DNA of 64,000 bases from a virus (Duplodnaviria; Caudoviricetes), in the IMG/VR virus record IMGVR_UViG_3300005611_000001; one strand, 5' to 3'. The notes below the pieces were generated by a model. The model had not been told where the DNA came from, ran no database searches, and saw only the letters and a program-made list of their open reading frames with translations. Numbering within the stretch: position 1 is the first letter of the stretch; every line of letters begins with the position of its first letter. Position numbers and translations under genes: made by a program. Below, in pieces: positions 5,107 through 56,798 of the stretch.

Positions 5107-5125
5107 TTAAAAAACTCCGGTAGCC

Positions 5126-5826: not shown

Positions 5827-5849
5827 GAATATATTCTCCCAATTGTGGA

Positions 5850-5878
5850 ATTATAGCAACCTAAGGATGAGGTGTCAA
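5850..5878 (-). promoter_or_regulatory. sigma70-type promoter for the fibre operon
   Basis: TTGACA-17 nt-TATAAT on the minus strand upstream of ORF 5488..5826. Confidence 0.8.
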
Positions 5879-5891
5879 GTTGTAAATTTTC

Positions 5892-7040: not shown

Positions 7041-7050
7041 AAATAAATCC

Positions 7051-7578
7051 TTAGTTATTAAAAGTTATAGTTATAATTGAATAATATCGGTCTTGATTAT
7101 TTGGATCTTGGTGCGGATCACTAATATTTCTTATCATATTTTCAGGGACAGCGTTATTTAAGTGATAGTTATATTCACTGCCCCCGTAAACAACTGGCAT
7201 TTTATAGCCTTTTACTTTAAAATGATCCCTTATAAACTCTGGGTCTTTATTCCCATATACCCAACCTTTAGAGCCATTTATATCGGGGCCTATAAGATCA
7301 TAAGCCCATACAATGTAGCCAGAATCTTCATCATCAAGTACTCCTGCAACTATTCTTACAAGTTTTCCGTCTTTTCTTACAATAAAGACTCTGCCATTTT
7401 CTATCTGAGCAAAAAGGTGAAACTTCTCTTTTAGAAAATTAAGTTTTTCTTCTTCTGTCTGTAAATCTCTATTCTCAAAATGATAATTTCCCGCATCTAA
7501 ATGAGGAAGAGAAGAATAAAAAACTTCGTCGAATCCTTCTACAGAATATACATCAAAAATCTCTTCAAAGTCTATCAT
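7051..7578 (-). CDS. Hypothetical protein
   Basis: 175 aa AT-rich ORF in operon context. Confidence 0.5.
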   Translation of the reverse strand: MIDFEEIFDVYSVEGFDEVFYSSLPHLDAGNYHFENRDLQTEEEKLNFLKEKFHLFAQIENGRVFIVRKDGKLVRIVAGVLDDEDSGYIVWAYDLIGPDINGSKGWVYGNKDPEFIRDHFKVKGYKMPVVYGGSEYNYHLNNAVPENMIRNISDPHQDPNNQDRYYSIITITFNN

Positions 7579-7581
7579 TAT

Positions 7582-8040
7582 TTAATTTCCCGCTAAAATT
7601 ACAAAAAATCTGTACCATGCAGAGCTACTAGATTTATGGAATAAGTTAATATCTGTTGCAGTTACATGAAAAGTAAATCCAAACTCATCATTAAACTGAC
7701 TAGATACAGTACTATTATGATACCCATAAATACTAAGCATACCTCCTGTTACTTCCTTAAAACCATAAACTAAGGGAGGATACGAGAGGGTGGTGCCAAA
7801 GCTAATTTGATTAGCTGTATTACTATATGTGCCGGTAGCGGAATTGAAAGTTGCAGCAGAGGCTTGCCTTCTATAATATCTCCATAAAGGTAAATGACCA
7901 ATAGGATTTATTGAATCAAAAGTGAGATTATCAAAAGAGGCTAGAGTTCCATTACTGTTTACTGCATCTAGGCCGGGCTTAGACACCCTAAGCCCATAGT
8001 TGCCGTTTCCTAAATTTCCTAAGACTACGCGATTCGCCAT
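7582..8040 (-). CDS. Tail-tip-associated protein, paralogue 3
   Basis: Starts MANRVVLGN..YGLRVSKPG.D; shares its N-terminus with two neighbours. Confidence 0.6.
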   Translation of the reverse strand: MANRVVLGNLGNGNYGLRVSKPGLDAVNSNGTLASFDNLTFDSINPIGHLPLWRYYRRQASAATFNSATGTYSNTANQISFGTTLSYPPLVYGFKEVTGGMLSIYGYHNSTVSSQFNDEFGFTFHVTATDINLFHKSSSSAWYRFFVILAGN

Positions 8041-8451
8041 TTAAGCCACCTCTCCTGTCGTAATAAAATAACCAATTGTAGGACTTGCACTCCCATATTT
8101 ATAAAATTGTACAGAACAATTATTCGTGGAAGGAAAACTGTAATTTACTACAACATTCAGGTTAAGACTTGATCCTGGAAAATAAGCGGGAGTTCCAAAG
8201 GTTACTATAGAATACCATATAACATAAGGTTTCACATTATTTACACAAGGTACTGTAACGGTATGAGTTGAGCCTGCTGTTGTTGGAAATGTATGGGTAC
8301 CTTGGGCAAGAATTTGAGCATACTTGTAATCTGAGGAAGAAGTACTAAAAAGTAAGTCTTGAACATTTGCTGTAGTTACATCTTTTCCTGGTTTAGAAAT
8401 CCATAAACCATATTCTGTGCCCTTTTTTCCTAATAATACTCGATTTGCCAT
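8041..8451 (-). CDS. Tail-tip-associated protein, paralogue 2
   Basis: Likely start MANRVLLGKKGTEYGLWISKPGKDV at 8451. Confidence 0.6.
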   Translation of the reverse strand: MANRVLLGKKGTEYGLWISKPGKDVTTANVQDLLFSTSSSDYKYAQILAQGTHTFPTTAGSTHTVTVPCVNNVKPYVIWYSIVTFGTPAYFPGSSLNLNVVVNYSFPSTNNCSVQFYKYGSASPTIGYFITTGEVA

Positions 8452-8452
8452 A

Positions 8453-8962
8453 TTAACTAGACGTTGCGCCTCCCAGTGCATAGACTATATAGTCAAATGT
8501 ATATGTAGAATTACTAACAATCAGATTCGGAGTAGCAATGGAGCTTCGGCCTTGACTTCCAAGAGCGTGTACTCTAAACCTACTTGCCTGAACTTCTACA
8601 TAGGTCTGAATAGTAGTTAAGCTGTAGCCATTTTTATTTGAATCAATACCTGCCGTAAAGTGAACCTCTGGGGAAGGATACAGTGTGTTGCTACCCACTT
8701 GACGAGTAATAGTGACAAGAGGGTAGTAAGACAAAGTAACTCCAAAATTTACCCAAGCACTGCTGCCTAGAGGGTTCGGAGGAGAGCTTGTAGAGCCTGT
8801 AGTTAGGTCTACTGTGCCAGTTTTTATGATAAAGGAAGACTCTGGCTTAGTAGAATCAAATACCAAATCATCGTCTCCCGCAGTCAGTACGTTTACTCCA
8901 GATTTTGAAACCTTGAGAACGTAATCGCTCCCATCTTGCCCTAATAATACTCGATTTGCCAT
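8453..8962 (-). CDS. Tail-tip-associated protein, paralogue 1
   Basis: Starts MANRVLLGQDGSDYVLKVSKSGVNV, directly downstream of J. Confidence 0.6.
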   Translation of the reverse strand: MANRVLLGQDGSDYVLKVSKSGVNVLTAGDDDLVFDSTKPESSFIIKTGTVDLTTGSTSSPPNPLGSSAWVNFGVTLSYYPLVTITRQVGSNTLYPSPEVHFTAGIDSNKNGYSLTTIQTYVEVQASRFRVHALGSQGRSSIATPNLIVSNSTYTFDYIVYALGGATSS

Positions 8963-25586: not shown

Positions 25587-27617
25587 TTAGTTAGCTGCGT
25601 ATTTCCAAGCCCACTTGGAGGTAGCGCTGTCGATGATATCGACGAAGCCAATGCGCTGAGAAGCAACCAGAACGCGGCGCTGATTCGCCACTTCGTAGTC
25701 TGCTTCCACCGTCACACCGCGAAGACGCGGAATAACGAAGTTGCGGGGGTTAACTGCAACAGCAGCGAACTTACCAGCAGCCTTAGCAGCAAACTCGTCG
25801 ACGAGAAGCACACGGCTACCGAACACCTGACCGATTTCACCAGTCAGTTTCGTTGCCATGTCACCAACAAGGTTGGCATCTTGGAATTCTGCGTCTTCGA
25901 GCAGGTTGTAGTAAGCGTCCTGAGACACGAGGTAGATGACTTCCTCGGGACGTACACCGTACTTACCCATGTTCTTACGCATTGCAAGAAGGTCAGCAGC
26001 CGTGAGAGCGTCCGTAGCTGCATAAGTGCCGCCAGAACCGCCACCAACGTCAGTAGTCGTGTCGGAGTCAGCAGCAGCAAGAGCAACGAGACCGTTGAAT
26101 GCAGCACCGCCGGTACCGAATGCGCCATCAGCGTGGTTGCCCACGAGAAGTGCGTTTTCAATCGCACGAGCGTGCGAACGGACCATCGACTCACGAATCA
26201 GGGGCAGAATGGGCAGAATTGCATCCTCTTCCGTCTCGTTGCCGAGATAGGACTGAGAAATGAGCTTCTTGACGGTGAGCGTACGCTCCGTCATGGTCAC
26301 ACCACCAAACGGAGAACCGTAGGTGTCGCCGCGAGTTGCGAGGTTGCCATTGGGAGCAGAACCTGCGGCGGTTTGTGCGGAAGCGAACTCAGCATAGCCT
26401 GCATCGGGAAGAATCGGAAGAATCATCGAAGCAGAGGTCATCTGAATTTCACGGAACAAGGGAGCCATCACAAGAGCGTTCTGAATGTCACGCTCGATGT
26501 TGGTGGACACAACTTGCTCGAAGTCAGCACTGGAAACCTGCACACCGGAGTGAGCATTCACTTTTTCCATCACGTTTTGAGCACGAGAGGTATTCCAGCC
26601 TTTGCCAGTTGCAAGACCGAGAACATAGCTGTCCACGATATCGCCTTCAAAGGTCTTCTGCCACTCGCCGTTGCCACGGTCAGCAAACACACGCTTGGAC
26701 TCGCGCATCTTCTCGATTTCACCAGCCTTCTCTTTGAGTTCGCCCTGAAGACCTTCAATGGTCTTTTCGAGGTCGCCCTTTTGCTCTTCAAAACGCTTTT
26801 CGATGTCTTGAACGAGTTTGGTAGCGTTGGACTCGACCGAGACGCGAACACGCTCTTCAAACTGCTTTTCTTCAGCCTCTAGGCGAGCAGCCTGCTCTTC
26901 AGCAGCCTTACGTTCAGCGGCCAGTTGCTCACTTACAGCCTTAGCAGCTTCAGCAGCGGCGGCCTTGGTGATAGCATCAAGATCGATGCTCTTTTCATTA
27001 TCCATGGTTTTCTCCTGTACTGTCGTTTCTTCAACGACTTTTGCCGTATCCCCAGCTGAATCTTGAGCTTTTGCTGAATCTTCAGCTAGGTGCTCGGCCG
27101 GTTCAACGCGTTTAAATTGATTGATAAAGTCTTTGTATTCATTCTCAGAATCAAAAGACTTTGCTAAAGAAAAGGTTGCAGCCTGATTTGCAGGAACGGA
27201 TACAACCGATACCTCAAACAGTTCCGCATCCTTAATGCGATATCCGTCAGTTTCCGCCATATAATCAGCATCCTTTACACGGAAACCAACGGAAAAAGCT
27301 CCGAGGATGCCTTCTTTCACCATATCTCGAATTGCACCAGCAGATTTCGAGATTTTAGCTTGAAGTTCTAGACCTTGTGGTGTAGCTTTCACACCGGTCG
27401 CACGACCAATAGGCTTATTGTAATCGTGATTAAAAAGAATAATCGGGTTATTATGAAAATTATCGAGGCCACCTTTCGTCCAAGCATCTACATCAATGAT
27501 GTCGCCGACACGGTCACGGTCCGCTGTGCTTGCAAAGCCACGAATTTCTACGGAACCGTCATCGCCTTCGCCGAGTGCCTTAAAGGTCGACCCCAGATGG
27601 AAAATTTTATTCTTCAT
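25587..27617 (-). CDS. HK97-type prohead protease fused in frame to the major capsid protein (internal MCP start at 27005)
   Basis: IRGFAST...DRVGDII, LFNHDYNKPIG, FSVGFRV, ELFEVSVVSVPANQAATF, then coiled-coil delta domain and HK97 fold; no stop between; AGGAG-N7-ATG at 27005. Confidence 0.9.
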   Translation of the reverse strand: MKNKIFHLGSTFKALGEGDDGSVEIRGFASTADRDRVGDIIDVDAWTKGGLDNFHNNPIILFNHDYNKPIGRATGVKATPQGLELQAKISKSAGAIRDMVKEGILGAFSVGFRVKDADYMAETDGYRIKDAELFEVSVVSVPANQAATFSLAKSFDSENEYKDFINQFKRVEPAEHLAEDSAKAQDSAGDTAKVVEETTVQEKTMDNEKSIDLDAITKAAAAEAAKAVSEQLAAERKAAEEQAARLEAEEKQFEERVRVSVESNATKLVQDIEKRFEEQKGDLEKTIEGLQGELKEKAGEIEKMRESKRVFADRGNGEWQKTFEGDIVDSYVLGLATGKGWNTSRAQNVMEKVNAHSGVQVSSADFEQVVSTNIERDIQNALVMAPLFREIQMTSASMILPILPDAGYAEFASAQTAAGSAPNGNLATRGDTYGSPFGGVTMTERTLTVKKLISQSYLGNETEEDAILPILPLIRESMVRSHARAIENALLVGNHADGAFGTGGAAFNGLVALAAADSDTTTDVGGGSGGTYAATDALTAADLLAMRKNMGKYGVRPEEVIYLVSQDAYYNLLEDAEFQDANLVGDMATKLTGEIGQVFGSRVLLVDEFAAKAAGKFAAVAVNPRNFVIPRLRGVTVEADYEVANQRRVLVASQRIGFVDIIDSATSKWAWKYAAN

Positions 27618-30189: not shown

Positions 30190-31488
30190 TCAGAAACCTG
30201 TTTGACTAGTTTCAAATGAGTAAAGAGCATAACGAAGCGCATCCGCAATGTGCGAGCTTTCATCATGTTTTGGTTTTTCGGTTTGCAGTCCTGGTCGATC
30301 ATCCCAGCGATACTGGTCGATGGATCTAAGGGTTTCTTTACACTCTTGGTGAATGACGAGCCGATCATTGTCAATAATAGAGGAGACATGCCCAATTCCA
30401 TCAATCACGGATTTCTTCGCATTTGTACAGCTAATATCGTAATTCTGAGCAAAGTCGAACTTCGTTTGCTGCGCTGCGGAGTCAATAAAAACAAAGTCTA
30501 CCTGATATTTGTCTAGAATTTCTCGAATATACTGAGCGTGCTGCTCTGTTGTGCGCTCAGCATGGTAATATTCTTCGAGAAGATAAAACTTTTCGGAATC
30601 CCAGTCGTACGCTATAACCACCAAGGCGGTAGGATCACGAAAGCCGACGTCGAGCCCAGCGATAATATCCATTCTCGATGTATCCAACTCAGAAAGGTTT
30701 TGGACGCAATCTTGAAAGTTGAAACTCCAGATTTGACCTTCATAAACATTAAAGTCTGCCATATATTCTTGAGCGAATTCAGCTTCACTCATTGTTCGTC
30801 TCGCCTCGTCAATGTCTGTTTGAGAAATACGAGGATTGTCTAAATAAGTTGCTTTGATTGATACCCATTCGGGGAATTCATCGGAAAAACCACGATAAAA
30901 GAATTCAGAAAACCAATTGTTTCTACCTCGAGGAGTAGAAATAAAGATCGCTTTTGAGTTATCTTTGTCCAGCGTTGGTCTGAGAGCCACATTAAATGCA
31001 TCTCTTCCATTTGCGAGGGCGGCTTCGTCAAAAATAATCAGATCATAGCTTCTACCCACGCTGGAATCGACCTGATTAATGGATCCCATTCTTACGGTCG
31101 AGCCATTTGTAAGCTCAATAACTTTGTCTTTTGCGTTGTCTCGTGCTACTTCTAGGTCAAAGTGCTTAATGAGGTTTCGCTGCAAATCAAAAGAGATCTG
31201 AGACAGCGAGTAGTTTGGAGACATGATAAGAATGTGGCAATTTGGAATCAACGAAATGAGTTGTCCAATGATATTAGCGATATAAGTCTTTCCTTGGCGT
31301 CGAGACAAAGCCGCACACACAAATCTATACTTTGGCGAATTGATTGCATTGATAAGAGCCACCTGAGAGGGAATAGGCTCAATGCCAAGAAGCTCAAGAT
31401 AGCCTTCGATTGGTAGTTTAATGAACCTACGAGGATCCTCGCTTTCCACAATGTGGTCAATAATTACATCTTTTCTGCTGACTTCCAT
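30190..31488 (-). CDS. terL: Terminase large subunit
   Basis: Walker A SRRQGKT, Walker B LIIFDEAA, FISTPRG, nuclease AGLDVGFRDPT, SHIADALRYA. Confidence 0.95.
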   Translation of the reverse strand: MEVSRKDVIIDHIVESEDPRRFIKLPIEGYLELLGIEPIPSQVALINAINSPKYRFVCAALSRRQGKTYIANIIGQLISLIPNCHILIMSPNYSLSQISFDLQRNLIKHFDLEVARDNAKDKVIELTNGSTVRMGSINQVDSSVGRSYDLIIFDEAALANGRDAFNVALRPTLDKDNSKAIFISTPRGRNNWFSEFFYRGFSDEFPEWVSIKATYLDNPRISQTDIDEARRTMSEAEFAQEYMADFNVYEGQIWSFNFQDCVQNLSELDTSRMDIIAGLDVGFRDPTALVVIAYDWDSEKFYLLEEYYHAERTTEQHAQYIREILDKYQVDFVFIDSAAQQTKFDFAQNYDISCTNAKKSVIDGIGHVSSIIDNDRLVIHQECKETLRSIDQYRWDDRPGLQTEKPKHDESSHIADALRYALYSFETSQTGF

Positions 31489-32192
31489 TCTTTAATTTTC
31501 CATTTTCCGTCGTAAATAATTGCTGTCATACTTTCGACCCAATCTCCAGTATTCAAGTAATGAATTCCTTCAATTTCTCGATTGCACGCAGAATGTATAT
31601 GCCCCGCGATGATTCCATCATACCCCTTGCTACGAGCATATTTTGCCATTTCGCCCTCAAAGTTACCAATATAGTTAGCAGCATTTTTTGCTTTACTTTT
31701 AAGGTACCTGCTAAGAGACCAATAATCTAAACCTAGCCATCTACGAATACGCGTAATCCATAAATTTATATAAGTTACAGCGTCATAAGCCTTATCGCCT
31801 AATTTCATAACTAATTGGCCAAACTGAGATCTCATAAGGTAATCAAAAAAGTCCCCATGAATCACAAGATACTTTTTTCCTTCTATTTCTAAATCTGCCC
31901 GATTAACAACTTTAATTTTTCCAACATCACAAGGCGCCCAACTACGAAGAAATTCATCATGATTACCCGTAACGTAAATTACTTCAGTACCTTTTTGAGA
32001 TAAAGTTACTATCTTTTTTAGAAGTTTTGTATGTTTCTGAGGCCAGTACCACTTCTTTTGTAGCCTCCAGCCGTCAATAATATCCCCAACAAGATACAAC
32101 TTTTCTGGTTGAACAGAGCACAAAAACTCATAGCATTGTTCAGCTTTTGCGTGTCGAGAACCTAAATGAATATCAGAAATAAAAACTATCAT
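31464..32192 (-). CDS. plcP: PlcP-like (LpxH2-type) metallophosphoesterase / phospholipase C
   Basis: SDIHLG, LYLVGDIIDGWRL..WYWPQ, GNHDEFLR, HGD.FD, YWSLS.YLK, AGHIH, NTGDWVES. Confidence 0.75.
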   Translation of the reverse strand: MIVFISDIHLGSRHAKAEQCYEFLCSVQPEKLYLVGDIIDGWRLQKKWYWPQKHTKLLKKIVTLSQKGTEVIYVTGNHDEFLRSWAPCDVGKIKVVNRADLEIEGKKYLVIHGDFFDYLMRSQFGQLVMKLGDKAYDAVTYINLWITRIRRWLGLDYWSLSRYLKSKAKNAANYIGNFEGEMAKYARSKGYDGIIAGHIHSACNREIEGIHYLNTGDWVESMTAIIYDGKWKIKEWKSAEKM

Positions 32193-32281
32193 AAGTAACC
32201 TTATAAAATGCTTCTTTCCCTACTCGAGGTTTACTAAGTCCCTGATTTTTTCAAGTATGAATAGGAAAAGAAGCAATACAT

Positions 32282-32587
32282 TTAATCTAATAAAGCGTTT
32301 AGAGGATCTTTTATCCATTTTTCAAAAAACTCCGTTTCCCTTCTGTTTTGTTCCAGCAAGTCATCTTCCAGAAGTTCTTTGCGCTGAGGAGGCATTTGTC
32401 TTAGTTGTATGAACTCAGCACTCGAAAATAGGGGTTTCTTGCCTGGATAAGTTCCACGGACTTCATAATAATAATTCATTGGGTCTGAGCGAGACCCTTC
32501 GGGATCGAGTAGTTCGAGCGACCCCGAGATAGAGCATCCGCCTAGCAACGCAAATCCTAAGAGGTATGCTTTGCTACAGCTTGACAT
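32282..32587 (-). CDS. Putative lipoprotein
   Basis: Hydrophobic N-terminus with lipobox LLGGC. Confidence 0.5.
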   Translation of the reverse strand: MSSCSKAYLLGFALLGGCSISGSLELLDPEGSRSDPMNYYYEVRGTYPGKKPLFSSAEFIQLRQMPPQRKELLEDDLLEQNRRETEFFEKWIKDPLNALLD

Positions 32588-33069
32588 AGTTTAATAAAGT
32601 ATTTATTATCATAATGTTGTTTCATCATATTAATATGTTTATGAACAACTTGAACATTTCCTTCTACATAACCCTTAGAAGAATCAATTCTATCCAAAGA
32701 TACTGTAATATTATTAACAGGAATACCTTCCCAGTCAATTGGCACGCCTGAAAGAGCGCAGCAGCAATTATTCTTTTCCCATAACTCTTGCACATATTCT
32801 GGAGTTATAGAGAACTCTAATCCTCTGGTTTCTGCGCCTACCTTAAACTTATTAAAGTGGGATATTCTAACCTTACCTACAAAACCTCTATGGCAGTTCT
32901 CAGTTTTTCTATTAGAACACTTTTTGCAGGTTTTTCCTAGCCGAAAAGATTCAATGGCATAATTTCTTCTTAGGTAATCTTGCATTTCTCCGCATTCTGG
33001 GCACGGCTTACACCATCTTCCATCTTCTCTTTGAAAAACTTCAGGCGGTAATTCTAGTGCTTTTGGCAT
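32557..33069 (-). mobile_element. HNH-like homing endonuclease with a Zn ribbon
   Basis: WCKPCPEC, CKKCSN, CCCALSG, SLDRIDSSKGYVEGNVQVV...INMMK; own promoter TTGACA-17-TATTAT at 33117-33145. Confidence 0.75.
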
Positions 33070-33189
33070 ATTTAGTCTCCTTTTTTATGCTATTTTGATT
33101 AATTTACCACTTTACCATAATAGCACAATAGACTAAAAATGTCAAAGAATATTTTTGCTTAGTTAGTAATAAAAACCTATACAGCGGGG

Positions 33190-33480
33190 CTACCATTTAA
33201 TTTTGTTGGCCCACCAGGCTGCACTCATTTTGCCCTTTGCGATATTTCTGGCATGCCGAGCTTTGAAAGAGGCGCGCTTCTTTTTCATTGCTTCGCTTTC
33301 GCCTTTCTTAGGCTTGCCTGCTGTTTTTGCGCCTTGCTGACCGAATCGAATGGTTTTTACCTTGCTACCCACCTTTGCAACCACAATGTGAGATTTTTTG
33401 GGATGGCTGGGAGTGCGCTTCGGCTTGTTGTAGCCTTTTACGCCTGCTCGCTTCAATCTGGAGTCTGCTTTACGAGGCAT
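33190..33480 (-). CDS. Small very basic protein
   Basis: 96 aa Lys/Arg-rich; KTIRFGQQG...SFKARHA...SAAWWANK.KW. Confidence 0.7.
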   Translation of the reverse strand: MPRKADSRLKRAGVKGYNKPKRTPSHPKKSHIVVAKVGSKVKTIRFGQQGAKTAGKPKKGESEAMKKKRASFKARHARNIAKGKMSAAWWANKIKW

Positions 33481-33734
33481 TATCTTCTCAATTTTGCTCT
33501 ATTTGTACGTTTGTTGTACTTATAGGCCCTTGCAGGACGTCCAGAGGCTTTTGCAGCCCTTGCTTTTGCTCTCTGGCCTGGAGTCATTGCGTTTCTTCGT
33601 CGTCCTTTTGCAGTAAGTTTAGTACCTTTGAGTAATCCAGCTTTATTTAAAAGGCCATACGCGGCAGTTTTGGGGTTCTTGACCCCCTTTCCGCGCAGCT
33701 GGCGCATAAGGCGAGTTACAATTTTAGCGGGCAC
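33480..33734 (-). CDS. Small very basic protein
   Basis: 84 aa Arg/Lys-rich, stop/start-coupled. Confidence 0.6.
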   Translation of the reverse strand: MPAKIVTRLMRQLRGKGVKNPKTAAYGLLNKAGLLKGTKLTAKGRRRNAMTPGQRAKARAAKASGRPARAYKYNKRTNRAKLRR

Positions 33735-33870
33735 GCTTCTTTCTTTTCATAATTGCTCGCTGAAGAGCCATCGGCAGCTTTTTCTGCTTTGCTGTCAAGC
33801 CCATAGACTTCTTGCCGCCTTTCCGCTTTTTGCCGCCCATCGGCTTTTTGTTACCATAATGTCCTGGCAT
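33724..33870 (-). CDS. Small very basic protein (48 aa, not in track)
   Basis: MPGHYGNKKPMGGKKRKGGKKSMGLTAKQKKLPMALQRAIMKRKKRAR; RBS GGAG upstream. Confidence 0.65.
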   Translation of the reverse strand: MPGHYGNKKPMGGKKRKGGKKSMGLTAKQKKLPMALQRAIMKRKKRAR

Positions 33871-33880
33871 TTACTTTCTC

Positions 33881-34654
33881 CTAAGCTCCGTCGACGAGAA
33901 TAATGTCGAACGCACAAGTAACTTTAAAGTTATTATTTGCTGTAGTAAAGCGAATGTCAATATCCGATTTTTCTGAAATTCTTAAAGGTACGGGAAAGTC
34001 ATAACGATAAGAGTTATCATATAGTTCTGCTATATGAGCGACTCGAAAACCTCCTTCTCCGAAAATTCGAGCCATCATCGTAATTTGCCCGTCGCCGCCC
34101 TTGGAAATGGAAGAGTCTCCGCAAAGAAGATACCCCGTCTTGCCTGCGGGAACTGTATAAACTCCCATAAGACTTTGCCCTCGTCCAGCAGCAATCTGTG
34201 CTACGACGGTTGCTCCGATGCTGGCATTTACAGTTCCTGCTACTCCCCCATTTGAAGTTCCGTACATACGAAAGACTCGAATAAAACTATTTTGAGTAGT
34301 AGCATTCGTGGGGGTACCGTCAGCCGCAGTAAGAACTACAACTTCTCGAAGAGGATTATAGTTTGCATCGAGACCTTCAATTGCTACGCTCTCTCCAGTA
34401 TCGTCATCCGTAGAAGAAATTACATCCAACGCAGTAGCGGTAGCTAAAGTTCCCCAAGGATAAATACCCCCAACCGTCCAAAGAGTCTCCGTTCCTTGAT
34501 CACAGTCAAAATTTGCACCAAACTTATGAATAATACTTGCACCAGGAACGAGCCCTCTTGCAATGTTGAGATAATTCCACTCTACAAAACTATTTCTTGA
34601 CACCTGAATCTCCGTATTCAAACATTTCCAGGTCTTTGGCAAATTTCTCTGCAA
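33881..34654 (-). CDS. Hypothetical (probably virion) protein; true start probably near 34605
   Basis: YLNIARGLVPGASIIHKFGAN..., NSFIRVFRMY, YTVPAGKTGYL. Confidence 0.55.
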   Translation of the reverse strand: MQRNLPKTWKCLNTEIQVSRNSFVEWNYLNIARGLVPGASIIHKFGANFDCDQGTETLWTVGGIYPWGTLATATALDVISSTDDDTGESVAIEGLDANYNPLREVVVLTAADGTPTNATTQNSFIRVFRMYGTSNGGVAGTVNASIGATVVAQIAAGRGQSLMGVYTVPAGKTGYLLCGDSSISKGGDGQITMMARIFGEGGFRVAHIAELYDNSYRYDFPVPLRISEKSDIDIRFTTANNNFKVTCAFDIILVDGA

Positions 34655-35189
34655 CCTTCAAAGCGGTTTGTATGCTATAATACTCTCGCCAAGGGCGATG
34701 AGTAGAAGAGTTAATAAGTTTTAACTTTGGAAGACCAAACCATTTCATCATATTCTCCCAGTCTTGTTCTAGTGTCTCAAACTTAATGAGATAATCCCAG
34801 CAGGGAATATGAAGATGCATTGGCCTAAAATGAATATTGTGTTCCTCAAAAGGGAGTTCACACACTCGATCAATAAATTCATCAAAAGGCATCTTTGCGT
34901 AAAAACCCTTCGTGTCTGTGATACTGCTTTTACCGCCTTCCCAGAGTTTTTGTTTCCAGCAAGACACTAAGCGATCATAAGGATTTCTTACGCAAGCTAC
35001 CTTAAAAAGAGGGCTGAAAGGAATCTCTTCAAGAGGGACTCTTTTCCAGCCTCCATGTAGCTTGTCTGGGTGAGTACTTCCGCCTGCCCACTCACGAATA
35101 GCTGTTTTCATAGCGCTATTCGCAGCTTTCGGCGTAAACATCAAAAGAAACTTATTTTCTGCGACGAGGTTTAAATCCGCCATATTCAA
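34590..35189 (-). CDS. Sulfotransferase (Sulfotransfer_2-like)
   Basis: 5'-PSB-like TPKAANSAMK, 3'-PB-like VRNPYDRLVS, HFRP, DYLIKFETLEQDW. Confidence 0.8.
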   Translation of the reverse strand: MNMADLNLVAENKFLLMFTPKAANSAMKTAIREWAGGSTHPDKLHGGWKRVPLEEIPFSPLFKVACVRNPYDRLVSCWKQKLWEGGKSSITDTKGFYAKMPFDEFIDRVCELPFEEHNIHFRPMHLHIPCWDYLIKFETLEQDWENMMKWFGLPKLKLINSSTHRPWREYYSIQTALKVAEKFAKDLEMFEYGDSGVKK

Positions 35190-35298
35190 TTGCTCTTAGT
35201 AGACGAACCATTTTACCTGCACTGCTTTTAGATTTGGCTGTCGCTATTTTCTTTCCGGTTTTCTTGTAAACGGTCTTACCTCTTACGACGTAGGGCAT
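35152..35298 (-). CDS. Small basic protein (48 aa, not in track)
   Basis: MPYVVRGKTVYKKTGKKIATAKSKSSAGKMVRLLRAIEYGGFKPRRRK. Confidence 0.6.
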   Translation of the reverse strand: MPYVVRGKTVYKKTGKKIATAKSKSSAGKMVRLLRAIEYGGFKPRRRK

Positions 35299-35671
35299 CT
35301 TTTAATTCCAATACTAAAGACCAGAAAAGTTTTCCGATGAGTATGAAACGAGGGTAGACCCCTTTAAAATCATGAAGTTTCATTTCTGGAACTAGAGCTC
35401 GATAAAAGTTATCGATGTATTTACCTTGGACTTCAAGAACCGCGTGACCTCGGCCTTTCTTAGTAGTAACGTACCACATTTTGTAGTACCCGGTCATCCA
35501 ACGCCAAAAGAAAGTTTTCCAGCTTCCAGAGTGCAGATAAGAAATTGTAAGAGCATAGTCCTCACAATCTCCTTGCATATCGGAACCCATTACTTCCCAG
35601 CGATCAATACCTTCGTCTTTTTTATATTTAAACTTAGCGTTTACTGCGTCGATTGCGTCTTGAAGTTCCAA
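35276..35671 (-). CDS. Transglutaminase-like cysteine peptidase (BTLCP/C93, LapG-like)
   Basis: VN..FKY..D, GDCEDYALT, GHAVL, IDN give a C-H-D triad. Confidence 0.75.
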   Translation of the reverse strand: MELQDAIDAVNAKFKYKKDEGIDRWEVMGSDMQGDCEDYALTISYLHSGSWKTFFWRWMTGYYKMWYVTTKKGRGHAVLEVQGKYIDNFYRALVPEMKLHDFKGVYPRFILIGKLFWSLVLELKDALRRKR

Positions 35672-35849
35672 GCCTCACCCTTTCATTTACCAGCGCTTGA
35701 GGAATGCGTTTTCCCTCTTTATATAATTTGGCAATTCTTTTAATTACAGACGCAAGGCGAACTCGTTCTCCGCCCTTTACTCCGCTAAGATACTTCTTCG
35801 GAATTTTACTTTTTGCGTCTTTTGGTACGCGTCTTCTTTTTTGCGGCAC
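35634..35849 (-). CDS. Small basic protein
   Basis: 71 aa; RRVPKD.KSKIPKKYLSG. Confidence 0.55.
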   Translation of the reverse strand: MPQKRRRVPKDAKSKIPKKYLSGVKGGERVRLASVIKRIAKLYKEGKRIPQALVNERVRLGTSRRNRRSKR

Positions 35850-36075
35850 TTTTGTTTCTCGTACGACGAATATCGGTGTCGTGCTTGCGAGAACCTCGCA
35901 AAAACGAATTCACACGAGCATAGGCCCATCTCTGCATTGTCATGCCTGGACGAGACCCACTCGAAAGAAAGGCACCTTGCCCACGACTATATACTTTTAC
36001 AAGATCTCCGGTCGTAAACTTGGTGCCCTTTGCTTTTTGTGCGAGTGTCTTTCGTACAGTCGCGGAAACAGCCAA
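35806..36075 (-). CDS. Small basic protein
   Basis: KVYSRGQGAFLSSGSRPG...WAYARVNSFL...HDTD. Confidence 0.65.
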   Translation of the reverse strand: MAVSATVRKTLAQKAKGTKFTTGDLVKVYSRGQGAFLSSGSRPGMTMQRWAYARVNSFLRGSRKHDTDIRRTRNKSAAKKKTRTKRRKK

Positions 36076-36360
36076 TTAGCCTCTCCGAACCATCCGAGTA
36101 CGACGGCGACGGCGAGCAGGTGCAGCACCGATGCCCCGTACAGAAGTTTTAAAGCTGCCGGTCCGGGGGGTCGCTGCTTTCGTCGTCCGAGTGTTCCGAC
36201 GCACTGCTGTCGAGCCCGTCGAGGCCACTGAGGTCACTTGCGTCCCCGCTGCTCGGTTCATCTCCCGAGAGAGGCCCCGACCCTGCGTGTGCTTCGGTAG
36301 TTTCAGAGAGACGTGCGGACGAGGAACCCCCGTCAGAACTCCGCCTGTTCGTGTTGCCAT
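36076..36360 (-). CDS. Small basic Arg/Thr-rich protein
   Basis: 94 aa; AGGAG RBS; ends RRRRTRMVRRG. Confidence 0.6.
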   Translation of the reverse strand: MATRTGGVLTGVPRPHVSLKLPKHTQGRGLSREMNRAAGTQVTSVASTGSTAVRRNTRTTKAATPRTGSFKTSVRGIGAAPARRRRRTRMVRRG

Positions 36361-36450
36361 TGTATTCTCCTAAAAAGGCTTCAGCCTCTTTCTTTGTAGG
36401 AAATCTATATAGGCGGTCAGTGCGAACGCGCCAGTATCCTCTACGATAAA

Positions 36451-36654
36451 TCATTGTTTCACCAGTATTTCGAGTTGTGCATGAACTCTAGCAACATCGA
36501 CTTGAAGCTGGTTTACTTTTTCAAGCATTACTTCTTGCTTGTTGAGAGCTTCTTCATGAGCCTCTACTTTTTCGGAAAGTGCAGAAGCCCACCAAATTAC
36601 AGCAGCAAACTCAAGAGTAAAGCCCAGAAGTAGGCTAAGACTTAGTTTCTCCAT
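36451..36654 (-). CDS. Small membrane-anchored coiled-coil protein
   Basis: N-terminal TM (..AAVIWWASAL) followed by a coiled coil. Confidence 0.55.
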   Translation of the reverse strand: MEKLSLSLLLGFTLEFAAVIWWASALSEKVEAHEEALNKQEVMLEKVNQLQVDVARVHAQLEILVKQ

Positions 36655-36661
36655 GAAGTAA

Positions 36662-37297
36662 TTACCCTACAACAAACTTGTTGCTCTTAGCCAAATTTTC
36701 CTTGGCGGGAAGGTATTGTAAGTTACTCAAAACATGAAGACCGCTCACTAGAGGGTTCTGTAGCGGAACGATGTGGTCTACATGGTGTCCCTTCGGGCAG
36801 TTAGCGTAAAAGAGACGTATTTGTTCTTCTTGAGAAGGAATCACCATTCTATTCAACAAGATTGCTTTTCTTTTTGACGCATGGTGTTTTGATACTTCTG
36901 GATGTCTTTTATAGTACTTTTTTGACCTTTCATTGTCGCACTTAGAGCACCAAATACTAAGACCGTTAGACGTAGAGCTCCAGTTACCGAAAGCGTTGTT
37001 TTCTTTGTATTTATTACAGCTTCCACAATATTTGAAATCGCTCAAGTCTAAAAAATAAGTTTTCCAGCTTTTTCCTTTTTCTTTGTTTGCATCGGGGAAA
37101 GTTTTGTTAGTTATTCTTGAAACTGTGTCTTTATTAACATACAGCTTTTTTGATATACTTTCAATATCCCCTTCGTTTAAGTACAAAGAAACTAACTCGT
37201 ATAAAGTGACTTCGGGGCTCTTTCCGCGTTTTCTTTTTACAACCTCTTTTCCAGAACGGCTTAGACAGGTTAAAATATTATTTATTACTTGATTCAT
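36662..37297 (-). mobile_element. HNH homing endonuclease
   Basis: [27 protein letters not shown]...[23 protein letters not shown]. Confidence 0.85.
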
Positions 37298-37733
37298 CTA
37301 TACCACCCAGCAATTTTGTCATAAGTTTGCCGTAGTTGCCTTGCCCAAATGGAGTTTCATTTATCTGGACATTTGTCTGATTTTTAATCGTTGTTTGCTG
37401 TTGCTGAGCCTTTAGCTCATCCATTCTCATCTTGTGCGCAAGTTGAATGAGGTCCACAAGGTCTTTGCTGGTATACATATCCGATTCTTGCGCTTCTTCA
37501 AACTTTTTCTCAATAATCTCATCCAGAAGGCTACCTAAACGAAAACGATTGCGATAGCCTAGGTCAAGATAAACTTGATCAATATAAGAACGCACTTCTC
37601 GACGATCAAGAATCTCAGCAGCCTTATCTGGAGAGATCGCCAGAGAGGACGCCGCCTCTTTTAGCGATCCAAACGACAGATAAGCGTTGGCCAGCTCGAG
37701 ACCTTCTGGAGAGATCGTCGGGAGTTTATTCAT
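37278..37733 (-). CDS. terS: Terminase small subunit (T5-like)
   Basis: [55 protein letters not shown]...GNYGKLM.KLL. Confidence 0.8.
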
Positions 37734-49119: not shown

Positions 49120-49653
49120 GTGATCGGTGAGAAAGTACCAAATGTTACTCTCTACACGAGAGTTCGTGATGAAAGTATTGAAGGACCAAATCCGTTTCGT
49201 TGGGAACTTGTGCAGACAGGCGAGCTTTTTACAGGAAAGACTGTAGTAGTCTTTTCTCTGCCTGGAGCATTTACTCCAACGTGCAGCACTTATCAGCTTC
49301 CGAACTTTGAGAAGCTGTATAATAAGTTTCAGTTGCAAGGAGTGGACGAGGTCTATGTGTGCAGTGTAAATGATGCGTTTGTCATGAATAAATGGCTAGA
49401 GCATCAAGACGTGAAAAACGTTAAGGCACTTCCTGATGGAAATGGTGACTTCACTCGCGCTATGGGTATGCTCGTGGATAAAGAAAATCTTGGTTTTGGA
49501 AAACGAAGCTGGAGATATGCCTTTATCGCTCGAGACGGCAATATCTCGCATTGGTTTGTGGAGCCTGGTTTCCGTAACAATGCTGACGACGATCCTTATG
49601 GTGAAACAGATCCTGAACATATCTTGAAAATTTTTCTTGATTCTTTGGACTAA
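49120..49653 (+). CDS. Peroxiredoxin (Prx5/type II)
   Basis: VVFSLPGAFTPTCS..QLP, VNDAFVM, PDGNGDFT..MGM, RSWRYA. Confidence 0.9.
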   Translation: MIGEKVPNVTLYTRVRDESIEGPNPFRWELVQTGELFTGKTVVVFSLPGAFTPTCSTYQLPNFEKLYNKFQLQGVDEVYVCSVNDAFVMNKWLEHQDVKNVKALPDGNGDFTRAMGMLVDKENLGFGKRSWRYAFIARDGNISHWFVEPGFRNNADDDPYGETDPEHILKIFLDSLD

Positions 49654-52058: not shown

Positions 52059-52451
52059 TTATTTCCATATGCAGGGTTCCAGATTCGGCTCACGATAGTT
52101 AGGGCCTTTCATTACTTTACCATCTTCACGCCGCAGAGGCTTACCGTCAGCCCCGAGCTTACTCATGTTGCTTGAATGTACTTCTTCAAAGCAAGAGTCT
52201 AGATCAATACCGAAAGCATGACCGGCTCCTAGGGTGACATAAAGAATGTCCGTAAGAGCGTCGGCCACTTCAATAAGTGCTTCTTTCTCATCAATAAGCC
52301 CCTGCTCGTACTTATACAGGCCGTCTCGAAGTTCCTGAACTTCTTCCTCAATAAGATGAAGTCGAAGTTCTAGCGGGCGATTCTTTAGCGCCGGTTCTTC
52401 GTGAACGTGCTGCCCGAAAGAGCGCATAAACTCTGCTACTTTGTTAAACAT
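52059..52451 (-). CDS. MazG-like / all-alpha NTP pyrophosphohydrolase
   Basis: LIEEEVQEL, EVADALTDILYVT.G, FEEVHSSNMSK...REDGKVMKGPNY; promoter TTGACT-17-TATAAT at 52475-52503. Confidence 0.85.
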   Translation of the reverse strand: MFNKVAEFMRSFGQHVHEEPALKNRPLELRLHLIEEEVQELRDGLYKYEQGLIDEKEALIEVADALTDILYVTLGAGHAFGIDLDSCFEEVHSSNMSKLGADGKPLRREDGKVMKGPNYREPNLEPCIWK

Positions 52452-52522: not shown

Positions 52523-52546
52523 AAAAAAGCCCTCTTCGTGAGGGCC
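52523..52546 (-). terminator. Intrinsic terminator after glutaredoxin
   Basis: GCCCTC-ACGAA-GAGGGC followed by TTTTTT on the minus strand. Confidence 0.75.
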
Positions 52547-52601
52547 TTACTGCAGCTGCGCCGAACACGCTTTTTCAGTATATAAAAACGTTTTCCGTGT
52601 G

Positions 52602-52835
52602 TCAATCCGCAGCCTGACCCAGAATCTTTACTAACTCATCATAGCCACCAATCCAGTGCCCGTCGATAAGTATCTTCGGATAAGTACGACTTCTAGGAAA
52701 CTCCTCACGAGCCTCGCTTTCATCAAAGTCATAATGAAGAAGCCGGTACTTATAAGGTAGTCCGGCTTCTTCAAGTAATATTTTGCTTTCTTCGCAGAAC
52801 TTACAGAAGTTCTTGCCCCAGATTTCTATGTCCAT
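52602..52835 (-). CDS. Glutaredoxin
   Basis: CKFC active site, RTYPKI..DGHWIGGYDEL. Confidence 0.85.
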   Translation of the reverse strand: MDIEIWGKNFCKFCEESKILLEEAGLPYKYRLLHYDFDESEAREEFPRSRTYPKILIDGHWIGGYDELVKILGQAAD

Positions 52836-53257
52836 AGCGTCGCCAAGTATTTCCCGAAGAGTTCGTAACCTCTTTGAATTCTAGCTTCGTACTCTTCCGT
52901 TAAGTTTACGCCCCCTTCAAACAGAGTGCCGGGCTCACGATATATGGGAGCTTCCAGAGTTACCTGTTCAAAGGTCCAAATTAATTCATTAAGAAGCCAT
53001 TGCCAGCGATCATAATCGTACTCGTTCATGTTTCTTAGATCCACGGGTACGTCAGAATTGTCGACTGTGCCGAAACTCACATCGTTTTCCTGCAACTTGA
53101 GTAACATGGCATAGACTAAAGGAGCAAGTGTACTTTCAAAAGACATGATGTCTTCATCTTCTACATTTAACTCTTTTACTTGCAGATTATGTCTTCGGTA
53201 AATCATATGTGAGCCAGCCTTTCCATAAAGGTGGAATAACATTTTTCCCAGGACCAC
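52826..53257 (-). CDS. Conserved phage hypothetical protein
   Basis: STLAPLVYAMLLKLQE...RWQWLLNELIWTF...RIQRGYELFGKY..LW. Confidence 0.55.
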   Translation of the reverse strand: MVLGKMLFHLYGKAGSHMIYRRHNLQVKELNVEDEDIMSFESTLAPLVYAMLLKLQENDVSFGTVDNSDVPVDLRNMNEYDYDRWQWLLNELIWTFEQVTLEAPIYREPGTLFEGGVNLTEEYEARIQRGYELFGKYLATLWT

Positions 53258-54183
53258 TCAGGTCCGGAAACTCGTCCAAGACTTTTGCATTTTTCTATAG
53301 CTTCTTCTAAGTTATTGCTGAGATATCCTGTTTTATTTATCTCTACAATATCGCAGGGTCCGGGTACTGGATAAGCTGCAACCGGAGTTCCTAGTGCTAA
53401 ACTTTCGATAAGTACAATTCCAAAGGTATCGGAGCGGCTGGGAAAGCAAAAAACTTCAGAAGAAGCATATTCATCTGCAAGTTCTTGACCTTTTTTGTAC
53501 CCAACAAAATTTACATTAGAATATTTTTGTTCGAGTATTTTTCTCTCGGGGCCGTCGCCTACAATATGAATGTCATACTTCGATCCCAATACACATAGGT
53601 CTTCTAAGTTTTTCTCTTTGCTAACTCTTCCAACGTACAGCACACGATTTTTAACTGGCTTTTTATTACTGATAAATTGAGCCTTATCTACCCCACGGCT
53701 CCATAATATTAAACTACCATTAAATTTTTTATCACGAAGCTGCAAGCGAATGGACTCTGTAGGAACCAAAGTATTTGCCGCTCTAGAGTGAAACCATCTT
53801 AGATACTTCCACGTAATACCAGAGGGAATTTTATACATCTTTTCTAAAAACATAGGAAATTGAGTATGATAGCTAGTAGTAAATTTCCAGTTTTTCTTAA
53901 TACAATAAAGTCGAGTTAAAAGCCCAAGAGGCCCTTCTGTAGCGATATGAATATGAGTAGGCTTATAGGAAGAAATTTCTTGAAAAACCTTCAAAGGCTG
54001 AACCGTAAGCCTTACTTCGGGGTACCCAAAAGCAGAAACATTGCGAAAGTCATCAGGAGTAAGAAGCCGAAGCTCCGCATAGTCTGGCATAAAAACTTTG
54101 GCAAGTTCTTGAATTTTATTTAGAGTTATTGCAACTCCGTTGACTTGACTTGTTAAGTTGTCACTTACTACTAAAACTCGCAT
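53203..54183 (-). CDS. Agt-like GT4 glycosyltransferase (glycosyl-diacylglycerol synthase-like)
   Basis: Start MRVLVVSD...QVNGV..TL; YPEVRL, HIATEGPLGL, FTTSYHTQFP, YLRWFH, WSRGVD, GRVSKEKNL, FPSRSDTFG.VLIESLA.GTPVAAYPV.GP. Confidence 0.8.
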   Translation of the reverse strand: MRVLVVSDNLTSQVNGVAITLNKIQELAKVFMPDYAELRLLTPDDFRNVSAFGYPEVRLTVQPLKVFQEISSYKPTHIHIATEGPLGLLTRLYCIKKNWKFTTSYHTQFPMFLEKMYKIPSGITWKYLRWFHSRAANTLVPTESIRLQLRDKKFNGSLILWSRGVDKAQFISNKKPVKNRVLYVGRVSKEKNLEDLCVLGSKYDIHIVGDGPERKILEQKYSNVNFVGYKKGQELADEYASSEVFCFPSRSDTFGIVLIESLALGTPVAAYPVPGPCDIVEINKTGYLSNNLEEAIEKCKSLGRVSGPEWSWEKCYSTFMERLAHI

Positions 54184-54347
54184 TTCTTCTTGTTCCATCT
54201 TTTAATAGCAGCCTTACGAGCACGACGACGAGCGTCACTCGGTTTCTCATAAAACTGGCGCTCACGATATTCCTGGAGCTTCTCGCTCACACCGCGTTTT
54301 AGCTTTCTTAGTGCGCGATCAACATTGTTCTTCACTTGTACTTTCAA
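54171..54347 (-). CDS. rpsU: Ribosomal protein bS21 (58 aa, TTG start, not in track)
   Basis: MKVQVKNNVDRALRKLKRGVSEKLQEYRERQFYEKPSDARRRARKAAIKRWNKKKCEF; AGGA RBS. Confidence 0.85.
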   Translation of the reverse strand: MKVQVKNNVDRALRKLKRGVSEKLQEYRERQFYEKPSDARRRARKAAIKRWNKKKCEF

Positions 54348-54614
54348 ACTGTAGTCCTAGTTGGCTGTCCACGAGACAGCGCATTGTCTGCAATACTTGC
54401 CCCGCATTGACGAGAAAATCGTCATCCTCAAGTGAACAGCCATACTCCAGACATTTTTTCGTAAATTCGGTAAACAGCTCGTCTACCATATCCTCTCTAC
54501 GGTCAAGAACCGTATACTTCTCACGAGGGAATTGAATAACCATATATTACTCTCAAAGGAAGTTATGCCTCTTGCTTAATAAAAAGCGGCTTAAATAACC
54601 CTCCATACTCGCGT

Positions 54615-54703
54615 ATTGTAGCTCACTTTCGTCTGGCTGTCAACAAACATTTTTAGGTAGCTTAAAAATAAGTGTTGACACGGCGGGGTCTTTCCCGTAT
54701 AAT
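54615..54703. promoter_or_regulatory. Divergent sigma70 promoter pair
   Basis: Minus TTGACA-17-TACAAT (54615-54643); plus TTGACA-17-TATAAT (54675-54703). Confidence 0.85.
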
Positions 54704-55198: not shown

Positions 55199-56798
55199 TT
55201 GGTAATGATCATTTTTGATCTTGAACAAGAAATTATGAAAGCCTGGAGTGTCGTAGACGATCTCAAGGATGCGGTAGAGTTTTTAAATGAGTGGCAAGGC
55301 GATGCTCTGAATCCTGAAGATAAGCGAGATAATCTTCTTCTGGGCATGGCAGCTCTCTATCAGATGCGCTTTGAACGTCTCTGGAACACTTTTGAAAAAG
55401 TTACGAAAGAACATCACGCTTTGCGTAGGAATCAAGCAGATGAAAAATAGATACGGCGACGAGTATCATTGGGAAAAACTCAATGACAAAGAATACAAGT
55501 TTGTGATGGAAGGCGAGTCGATGGATTACTGTCTTTGGGGCGCGAAAGAAGGCCAAGATAAAATCGATATGAATGATCTTGGTATGTTCGATCCAAGTGG
55601 GGGCCCGTATGTTGCAATTGGATCTTTAGTAGAAGGTAAAGCCATCGAACACATTCGTAGAGCTGAAGAAGGTTTTATCGTAAAGGTAAAGCTATGAGCA
55701 ATAAGAAACTGTTGGAAGGACTTGACGAACTGCGCGAATCACTGCAAGAAGCACATGCTGAGTACGAAGCCGAGAACGATGCATGGTGGAACGGTCTCAC
55801 TGAAGAAGAACGTGAAGATGCGTTCTATGCGGTAATCAAGCGAATGTATCAAGCAGAAGTAATAAATCGCCGTACTTATCGTGGTGCACTGTATGATGTG
55901 TTTGGATTTGATATGGGTATGTACGGCCAAGGCATGAGTTGTGGATACTTTAACCTACACAATATGATCTTCGATAGTTTTGAGTTGAGTGCTATGAAGA
56001 ATGTAACTCGCTTTGAAGTGATTGATGATAAAGGTCGTACTTATGTTAAGTATCTAAAGGACGACGAAGTAATCAAGTATAGTTTACAAGATGATGACCG
56101 TACACTCAAAGTGTTTATTGACAACCTAAGGTGGAAAGAAGATTTATGAACGAACGAATCCAAGACCTGTATCGAGAAGCAGAGAAATCTGTTGCGTTCG
56201 TGAGTAACTCAACGGAATCTAAACAACTGATCATACGGGAAAAGTTCGCCGAGTTGATTGTACAAGAATGTGCTAGTATTGTGTATAAAACTTGTCAAGA
56301 TGGTGATGCTGGTGCCCAGGCTATTTTGTATGAATTTGATATTGACAATGCCAGAAGTCAAAAATAAACATTTCGGAGTTGAAGAATGAACCGTTTAGAA
56401 ATCTTTCAAGAAGTATATGGCAAGGACTATGTGTTTACTGAAACCGAACTAAGCCAGTTACAACAAGTCGCCGAGTTGATTGTGCGAGAGTGTGCTGCTG
56501 TATTGGATAAACGAATTGCGCCACCCAATCATCCCATGAACAGTTTGGGATATGAATTGAAACAACATTTCGGAGTTGAAGCATGAGCATTAAAGTAGAT
56601 CAAAGACGAGCAGTATTCGCAAAACTCAAAGACTATTGTATGCATAGTGGCGACCATGACTACATGGAAGTCACTGAGTGGTCGAACGGTGAAGGGTACG
56701 ACATCTGTATTGATCGCAAGAATGGCGGCGAGAAGTTCAGTCTCACTTACGGTGAGTGGGAACTGTTACAAGTGCTGATAAACTATAAGGGTGAGTGA
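55199..56798 (+). CDS. Cluster of small coupled hypothetical ORFs
   Basis: 55199-55450, about 55440-55697, 55694-56149, about 56146-56367, 56386-56586, 56583-56798; ATGA overlaps. Confidence 0.6.

Follow-up and report, generated by a model that had tools for sequence, protein, structure and literature searches.

A T5-like marine phage with predicted plcP and agt genes of the phospholipid-to-glycolipid remodelling route

The window analysed here is a 64,000-nucleotide stretch of virus DNA (IMG/VR record IMGVR_UViG_3300005611_000001), and its subject is two genes at separate loci, plcP and agt, whose predicted products would carry out the two steps by which bacteria exchange phospholipids for phosphorus-free glycolipids: a phospholipase C of the PlcP family, and a glycosyltransferase (GT) of the GT4 type and the Agt family acting on diacylglycerol (DAG). 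The plcP gene is joined to terL, the gene of the large terminase, and the three genes are located as follows.

31464–32192, minus strand: plcP, predicted PlcP-family metallophosphoesterase (phospholipase C), 242 aa; assigned by open reading frame (ORF), Pfam, identity, profile and residues.
30190–31488, minus strand: terL, large terminase, T5-like; Pfam Terminase_6N and 6C, 49–50% identical to T5-like terL.
53203–54198, minus strand: agt, GT4 of the Agt family, predicted DAG glycosyl- or glucuronosyl-transferase, 331 aa; assigned by Pfam Glyco_transf_4 and Glycos_transf_1, identity, profile and tree.

A preliminary description of this DNA, made from the letters alone, had proposed a complete metallophosphoesterase coupled to the start of terL. 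The plcP ORF was found exactly at the proposed position, running from the ATG through the stop codon, and its product matches Pfam Metallophos and Metallophos_2, both above cut-off. The motifs GDIIDGWRL..WYWPQ, GNHDEFLR, YWSLSRYLK and GHIH are all present in the translation, the metallophosphoesterase motif set (DxH, GD, GNH[D/E], H, GHxH) is complete, and residues D7, H9, D37, N77, H78, H112, H198 and H200 are invariant when the protein is aligned with characterised PlcPs. The last 25 nt of plcP overlap the ATG end of terL, and from this arrangement plcP is predicted to be translationally coupled to the terminase gene.

Over its whole length the window PlcP shows 48% identity to PA3219 of Pseudomonas aeruginosa (E 1e-78) and 45% identity to SMc00171 of Sinorhizobium meliloti (E 4e-72), both of which are characterised enzymes. 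PA3219 is itself 46–47% identical to other characterised PlcPs (PMC8528852), so that the window protein stands at the level these enzymes share among themselves, which counts for membership of the family. The published criterion for a PlcP is a BLASTP E-value below 1e-40 to the MED193 protein (PMC4796936); applied here to PA3219 and SMc00171 instead, it is far exceeded. A profile built from 55 cellular homologues, each with agt directly after it, gives the window protein 308 bits, PA3219 374 and SMc00171 390, as against 35 for LpxH of Escherichia coli. A maximum-likelihood tree puts the window protein within the family whose limits are set by PA3219, SMc00171 and the SAR11 PlcPs; LpxH, represented by a single sequence, is the outgroup on a very long branch.

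LpxH, a hydrolase of lipid A synthesis, was also considered as the identity of this protein and was rejected. The two NCBIfam equivalog models of LpxH score far under their cut-offs (NF003743, 49.7 bits with a cut-off of 134; TIGR01854, 39.5 bits with a cut-off of 190), the window protein has GNHDE where E. coli LpxH has GNRD, and the two are 19% identical in alignment, the BLAST match covering the N-terminal 116 residues only, with 26% identity. The AlphaFold model (predicted local distance difference test score, pLDDT, 84.5) is a metallophosphoesterase sandwich consisting of an LpxH-like core and a helical lid at about residues 113–188. Structure searches with this model returned LpxH (template-modelling score, TM, about 0.6) and generic metallophosphoesterases, the same architecture being solved in LpxH only; no PlcP structure is known to be solved, so the fold does not tell PlcP and LpxH apart. 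The product of 31464–32192 is thus, by its sequence, a member of the PlcP family rather than an LpxH, as had been proposed at the outset.

Public annotation labels all PlcP relatives 'UDP-2,3-diacylglucosamine diphosphatase LpxH', and this automatic label also sits on the experimentally characterised PlcPs PA3219 and SMc00171. Among deposited phages a handful have a PlcP homologue, including Synechococcus phage S-SRM01 and Pelagibacter phage Mosig, the latter with 45.6% identity to the window protein. The Mosig gene (gene 120, MT647606.1; L005:4885–6720) is labelled UDP-2,3-diacylglucosamine hydrolase/LpxH, while its product scores 332 bits on the PlcP profile, so that the deposited name is probably wrong. 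A few phage papers name 'lpxH' as an auxiliary metabolic gene related to lipopolysaccharide (LPS), a designation that comes from automatic annotation. Phage plcP genes such as those of Mosig and S-SRM01 would thus be hidden under the wrong name.

The reference sequences of PA3219 and SMc00171 were taken from records in a plasmid collection, neither of which resembles a true plasmid. The PA3219 record (L007, NZ_CP137508.1) is a 96-kb P. aeruginosa 'plasmid' with PA3217–PA3219 and looks chromosomal; the order of genes is PA3219, the GT gene (Agt1/PA3218) and then a convergent adenylate cyclase gene, and the identity of the recovered PA3219 sequence agrees with PMC8528852. The SMc00171 record (L006, CP090106.1) is a 3.7-Mb S. 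meliloti 'pSymB', filed as a plasmid, which contains a homoserine-lactone synthase / LuxR locus and likewise looks chromosomal. SMc00171 adjoins the genes of an acyl-homoserine-lactone synthase and a LuxR-type regulator, which we take to be sinI and sinR.

An Agt-like gene had also been noted at 53.2–54.2 kb, and this holds. The product of 53203–54198 is 37% identical to Agt1/PA3218 of P. aeruginosa over the full length (E 3e-74) and has the N-terminal motifs SD..QVNGV, H[IL]ATEGPLG and HT.FP in common with bacterial Agts. Agt1 made monoglucosyldiacylglycerol (MGDG) in E. coli by experiment (PMC8528852). On a profile built from 55 cellular Agts adjacent to plcP the window Agt scores 336 bits, and in the tree it lies within an all-viral Agt clade, indicating by sequence that this GT4 is a true Agt relative. 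Its matches include the GT4 encoded next after plcP in 58 of 80 cellular genomes (34–43% identity), mostly Alphaproteobacteria and including Pelagibacteraceae. A second GT4-type protein, encoded at 5892–7040 on the minus strand, was weighed as a possible partner of Agt2 type and discarded, with 9 bits on the Agt profile and no useful pairwise similarity; it belongs to phrog_3408 (E 6.5e-163) and is located among tail-fibre genes. Since one window protein is assigned to the PlcP family and the other to the Agt family, both steps of the PlcP-Agt route appear to be encoded by the phage, in agreement with the preliminary description.

The window is clearly phage DNA and not host DNA, and both plcP and the GT4 gene are flanked by phage genes on either side, so the locus is not host-derived. 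Downstream of terL are found a gene like the T5-type nicking endonuclease (PF26848, Phage_T5_Nicking_endo), the portal gene, the protease/major-capsid gene and a neck protein gene, followed by a tail module encoding the major tail protein, tape measure, tail assembly protein, 1825-aa central fibre and tail fibres (tail fibre J). The capsid region at 25587–27617 (minus strand) is one 676-aa ORF matching both the head maturation protease (residues 10–266) and the major head protein families, and is apparently a fused protease-capsid gene. The other arm encodes an endolysin, SSB, ThyX, MazG, three tRNAs, namely two tRNA-Thr(tgt) and one tRNA-Arg(tct), and the ribosomal protein bS21. The T5-type terminase, the nicking-endonuclease-like gene, the portal and the long non-contractile tail module place the window among the T5-like (Demerecviridae-like) phages. 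Megablast with 24 kb of the window gave no nucleotide match to any deposited phage, indicating a distant T5 relative. The identical region is present in an independent ENA assembly, and a 2015 marine metagenome has identical short contigs, one of which crosses the plcP/terL junction; the habitat label is taken from run X1 (marine, identical pieces) only. Neither phoH nor pstS was found among the about 45 window proteins scanned. Other genes of auxiliary type are located at 49120–49653, 52059–52451, 56795–57244, 57994–58644 and 60596–61126, and encode in this order a peroxiredoxin, a MazG-like pyrophosphohydrolase, a short fragment with an IMPDH/GMP-reductase domain, ThyX and a 2OG-Fe(II) oxygenase.

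Upstream of terL, plcP lies in a variable accessory island that extends to a conserved gene at 37278–37733. The features of this region are:

31489–37277, minus strand: variable accessory island, from terL to the conserved gene, with plcP, HNH endonuclease, sulfotransferase, BTLCP-like protein and small basic ORFs; delimited by Pfam, comparison with the related contig L067 and indels in a close relative.
32282–32587, minus strand: 101-aa ORF preceding plcP, its translation showing a signal peptide and the lipobox LLGGC.
32557–33069, minus strand: HNH / endonuclease VII-like homing endonuclease (phrog_3322 and phrog_1035).
33117–33145, minus strand: sigma-70-like promoter TTGACA-17-TATTAT with TG, 11/12 in a consensus scan (pattern match only), that could drive the HNH gene, the lipoprotein-like ORF, plcP and terL.
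34590–35189, minus strand: sulfotransferase of the Sulfotransfer_2 family (Pfam), in the accessory island.
35276–35671, minus strand: weak match to a BTLCP-like transglutaminase/cysteine protease fold (Pfam), in the accessory island.

The 101-aa ORF has no match in Pfam or PHROG and could encode an exclusion lipoprotein like Llp of T5, or a spanin component. The sulfotransferase may act on a glycolipid, on LPS or on a protein of the virion. In the related T5-like contig L067 (IMGVR_UViG_3300008120_000245, 4719–8659), which has portal, capsid and tail genes in common with the window and a terL that is 57.5% identical, the order is a homologue of 37278–37733, plcP, an overlapping GT2 gene, two ORFs and terL. 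The L067 cassette thus occupies the equivalent site upstream of terL with a different partner enzyme. The nearest relative of the window PlcP, P0002, is 66% identical; after its plcP gene the contig ends in an ORF that overlaps it and may be terL.

A relative that is about 88–92% identical in the flanks was found in run X2, a marine plankton metagenome, on one contig of depth 5. It lacks plcP, position 31488, the first base of terL, being joined to 32307 with 114 unrelated nt between, so that the 101-aa ORF there almost adjoins terL, and it also lacks the HNH endonuclease, with a joint from 32539 to 33218 and 54 nt in its place. As the first joint skips plcP, this gene should be dispensable and mobile, as expected of an auxiliary metabolic gene, and the plcP-less relative is a ready-made natural knock-out comparator. 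Contigs of two metatranscriptome studies carry pieces of plcP with 93–97% identity; these pieces come from relatives and might be due to DNA carry-over, and they are not taken as evidence of transcription.

The agt gene is the third gene of a presumptive operon, orf74-bS21-agt, with the following features.

54615–54643, minus strand: near-consensus sigma-70 promoter TTGACA-17-TACAAT at the head of orf74-bS21-agt (consensus scan, pattern match only).
54319–54543, minus strand: 74-aa ORF, the first gene of the operon, predicted from sequence.
54171–54347, minus strand: phage-encoded ribosomal protein bS21, overlapping the start of agt with its 3' end (Pfam Ribosomal_S21, E 3.3e-12, 46.4 bits with a cut-off of 27).
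52826–53257, minus strand: 143-aa ORF (phrog_11543) overlapping the 3' end of agt, probably the last gene of the operon.
52526–52548: terminator-like site after the 143-aa ORF.
54675–54703, plus strand: divergent promoter, 12/12 in the consensus scan, facing the promoter of the agt operon.

No Pho box had been seen in the preliminary description, and the consensus search agrees with this, within a limited sensitivity. With the E. coli-type consensus, which may not be that of the host, the window has 6 matches with at most 3 mismatches where 4.7 are expected, none of them upstream of plcP, and 5 mismatches, a background level, are the fewest there; the test has low power, since even the known P. 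aeruginosa box scores 4 mismatches. One match with 3 mismatches, at 54626–54643, was rejected: it corresponds, read on the opposite strand, to the -35 box of the agt promoter, and for a Pho box both its place and its orientation are wrong. Upstream regions of cellular plcP genes are enriched, 22 of 79 having a match with at most 3 mismatches as compared with about 3% of random windows, while viral plcP loci are not (2 of 80).

Relatives of plcP were found in at least 565 IMG/VR stretches by an alignment-based scan, a scan with a single sequence having given none, and the counts of neighbouring genes given here refer to the best 80 of these at least 565 stretches. The co-occurrence of plcP and agt in viral databases, suggested as a check of the preliminary description, is borne out by these counts: an Agt-like GT4 is encoded at most 3 kb downstream of plcP in 35 of the 80 loci, mostly directly after it, and the window GT4 matches the GT4 of these 35 contigs with up to 47% identity. 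A GT2 gene stands beside plcP in 20 loci, and neither type of GT lies within the available flank in the remaining 25. Spot checks confirmed that the carriers are viral, contigs L081 and L068 by strong families found in PHROG only, a virion structural protein, a ligase and nucleases, and contigs L001, L003 and L004 by a UvsX-type RecA and a T4-type RNA ligase. The window is therefore one instance of a wider pattern, plcP-GT cassettes being common in uncultured phages. The GT2 (237 aa) and plcP form a conserved pair in T4-like or large phages (L001:5310–6738, L003:1577–3005, L012 and about 20 IMG/VR loci); in L001 and L003 the GT2 gene precedes and overlaps plcP, with the UvsX-type RecA and T4-type RNA ligase genes nearby.

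A close Agt is absent from the deposited phages that were searched. In the trees the window PlcP groups with an all-viral, GT2-linked, T4-like set (22 rows, Shimodaira–Hasegawa-like approximate likelihood ratio test, SH-aLRT, 99), and the all-viral clade of the window Agt consists of the agt products of plcP-agt cassettes whose PlcPs fall in another viral clade (16 rows, SH-aLRT 99). As the two proteins belong to different viral clades, the pathway of this phage seems to have been assembled from two viral sources.

In bacteria PlcP cleaves phosphatidylglycerol (PG), phosphatidylethanolamine (PE) and phosphatidylcholine (PC) to DAG and the phosphorylated head group, and Agt moves glucose or glucuronate from a UDP-sugar onto DAG (PMC4796936, PMC8528852, PMC9239053). 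For the phage enzymes we infer substrates, products, expression timing and benefit from these families. Acting on the cytoplasmic side of the inner membrane, the metal-dependent PlcP would cut the phosphorylated head group off host PE and PG and leave DAG, which the phage Agt would glycosylate with a UDP-sugar to phosphorus-free glycolipids of the MGDG or glucuronic acid diacylglycerol (GADG) type. The bilayer would be kept intact, and lipid phosphorus would be freed for nucleotide and DNA synthesis. The two unlinked steps would be under phage rather than PhoB control, with agt behind a sigma-70-type promoter together with bS21. That PlcP releases DAG, Agt glycosylates it and phosphorus of the host membrane is freed during infection is in our opinion the best explanation of the two genes, and a probable one. 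The plcP gene of Mosig is divergent from a phage pstS gene, which links it to phosphorus stress, and in SAR11 hosts homologues of plcP are located close to pstS.

Several points weigh against this explanation. A distance of 21 kb separates plcP from agt, and each has its own transcription unit, so that their functional pairing is deduced from their co-occurrence and from homologues that are adjacent in other genomes. Late expression of plcP along with terL would free the phosphate at a late stage for DNA replication. The search for a Pho box found none, which leaves this phage without a direct connection to phosphate stress. The branches of both proteins are long (0.75 for PlcP, 1.17 for Agt), and some change of specificity is therefore possible. 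A more detailed version, in which Agt would be made early with bS21 and PlcP later from the terminase unit, in a programme independent of the host and split in time that converts phospholipid to glycolipid regardless of the Pho status of the host and mines phosphorus for DNA, is put forward tentatively, as a possibility that may well not hold.

The main rival keeps the enzymes and their chemistry unchanged and places the benefit in remodelling of the envelope, and not in the supply of phosphorus: the glycolipids would alter the properties of the cell surface or the membrane, through a block of superinfection, a changed display of receptors or membrane stability until lysis. The absence of a detected Pho box and the position of agt behind a constitutive-type sigma-70 promoter with bS21 are consistent with it, and the lipoprotein-like ORF beside plcP, the sulfotransferase and the second GT in the window suggest a wider repertoire for surface modification. 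Three papers (PMC9938194, PMC9804370, PMC9457565) link lipid renovation in bacteria to phage attachment and to trade-offs with predation. However, the expected targets of PlcP and Agt are glycerolipids of the inner membrane and not receptors at the outer surface, and the neighbourhood of pstS in Mosig and in SAR11 points to phosphorus economy; remodelling as the primary benefit is therefore considered unlikely.

Of the lesser rivals, the first has PlcP acting alone, in a late weakening of the inner membrane or in the supply of DAG or head groups, while the GT4 serves an unrelated glycosylation and no two-step pathway exists. The separation of the genes into different transcription units, the coupling of plcP to the late-type gene terL, the 25 of the best 80 viral loci with no GT in the sequenced flank, and the origin of the two proteins in different viral sub-clades would all fit. 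On the other hand, its 336 bits place the GT4 in the particular Agt family that is linked to plcP, not among GT4s at large, almost all relatives found for it directly follow a plcP, and the phage has an endolysin of its own, which makes this reading improbable. A hydrolase of the LpxH/PlcP superfamily with another substrate (CDP-diacylglycerol, lipid-linked sugars or UDP-2,3-diacylglucosamine), affecting LPS or phospholipid synthesis with no phospholipid degradation, would agree with the public LpxH annotation of all relatives, with LpxH as the only solved structures of this fold and with the long terminal branch of the window PlcP, but is very improbable in view of the low and partial similarity to E. 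coli LpxH, the scores far under the LpxH cut-offs, GNHD in place of GNRD, the 308 bits on the PlcP profile as against 35 for LpxH, and the automatic origin of the label.

The exchange of phospholipids for phosphorus-free lipids is a major phosphorus economy of marine bacteria, and PlcP-Agt is an established bacterial route to it. If the release of membrane phosphorus by the two phage enzymes is correct, viruses would directly liquidate the phosphorus of the host membrane and keep the membrane intact, and infected cells could be the source of some glycolipids measured in seawater low in phosphate. With hundreds of plcP-GT cassettes, viral lipid remodelling would then be a widespread and so far undescribed flow of phosphorus and source of glycolipids at sea.

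With the bacterial PlcPs (SMc00171, PA3219, MED193_17359 of Phaeobacter sp. MED193 and that of SAR11 HTCC7211) the window protein shares the family by sequence (45–48%), profile and tree, as well as the catalytic motif set with GNHD, the length class, the predicted core-plus-lid fold and a partner Agt gene in the genome. It differs in being encoded by a lytic-type T5-like phage, in its place in an all-viral clade and in lacking two parts that the cellular proteins have, an N-terminal extension of 15–17 residues and a C-terminal tail; its gene lies outside an agt or btaAB operon, has no detectable Pho box and is predicted to be translationally coupled to terL. LpxH belongs to the same superfamily, has the nearest solved fold and lends its name to the public entries of the relatives, but it is the outgroup in the tree, and the window protein, with 19% identity and GNHD instead of GNRD, fails both curated models.

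The GT4 architecture is shared with the bacterial Agts (Agt of Agrobacterium tumefaciens, PB7211_960 of SAR11 and Agt1/PA3218), the full-length identity being 37% to Agt1 and 38–40% to the plcP-adjacent Agts of SAR11, whereas the window gene is 21 kb from plcP, together with a phage bS21 gene behind a sigma-70-type promoter, and its product has a long branch in a viral clade. The phosphate-stress genes pstS, phoA and phoH of cyanophages and pelagiphages are likewise host-derived phosphorus-economy genes in marine phages, but these known genes act on uptake and not on the lipid store of the cell. The carriers of the plcP-GT cassettes of uncultured phages are mostly T4-like or jumbo phages, while here the carrier is a T5-like siphovirus with the two genes at two loci and from different viral sub-clades. 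According to one virocell study, lipid remodelling in infected cells is little known, and a literature search, with most subscription journals outside its coverage, found no paper on a phage-encoded PlcP or Agt. Compared with these systems, what is new in the window is the T5-like carrier, the split layout over two loci, the coupling to terL and bS21, and the existence of a natural relative without plcP.

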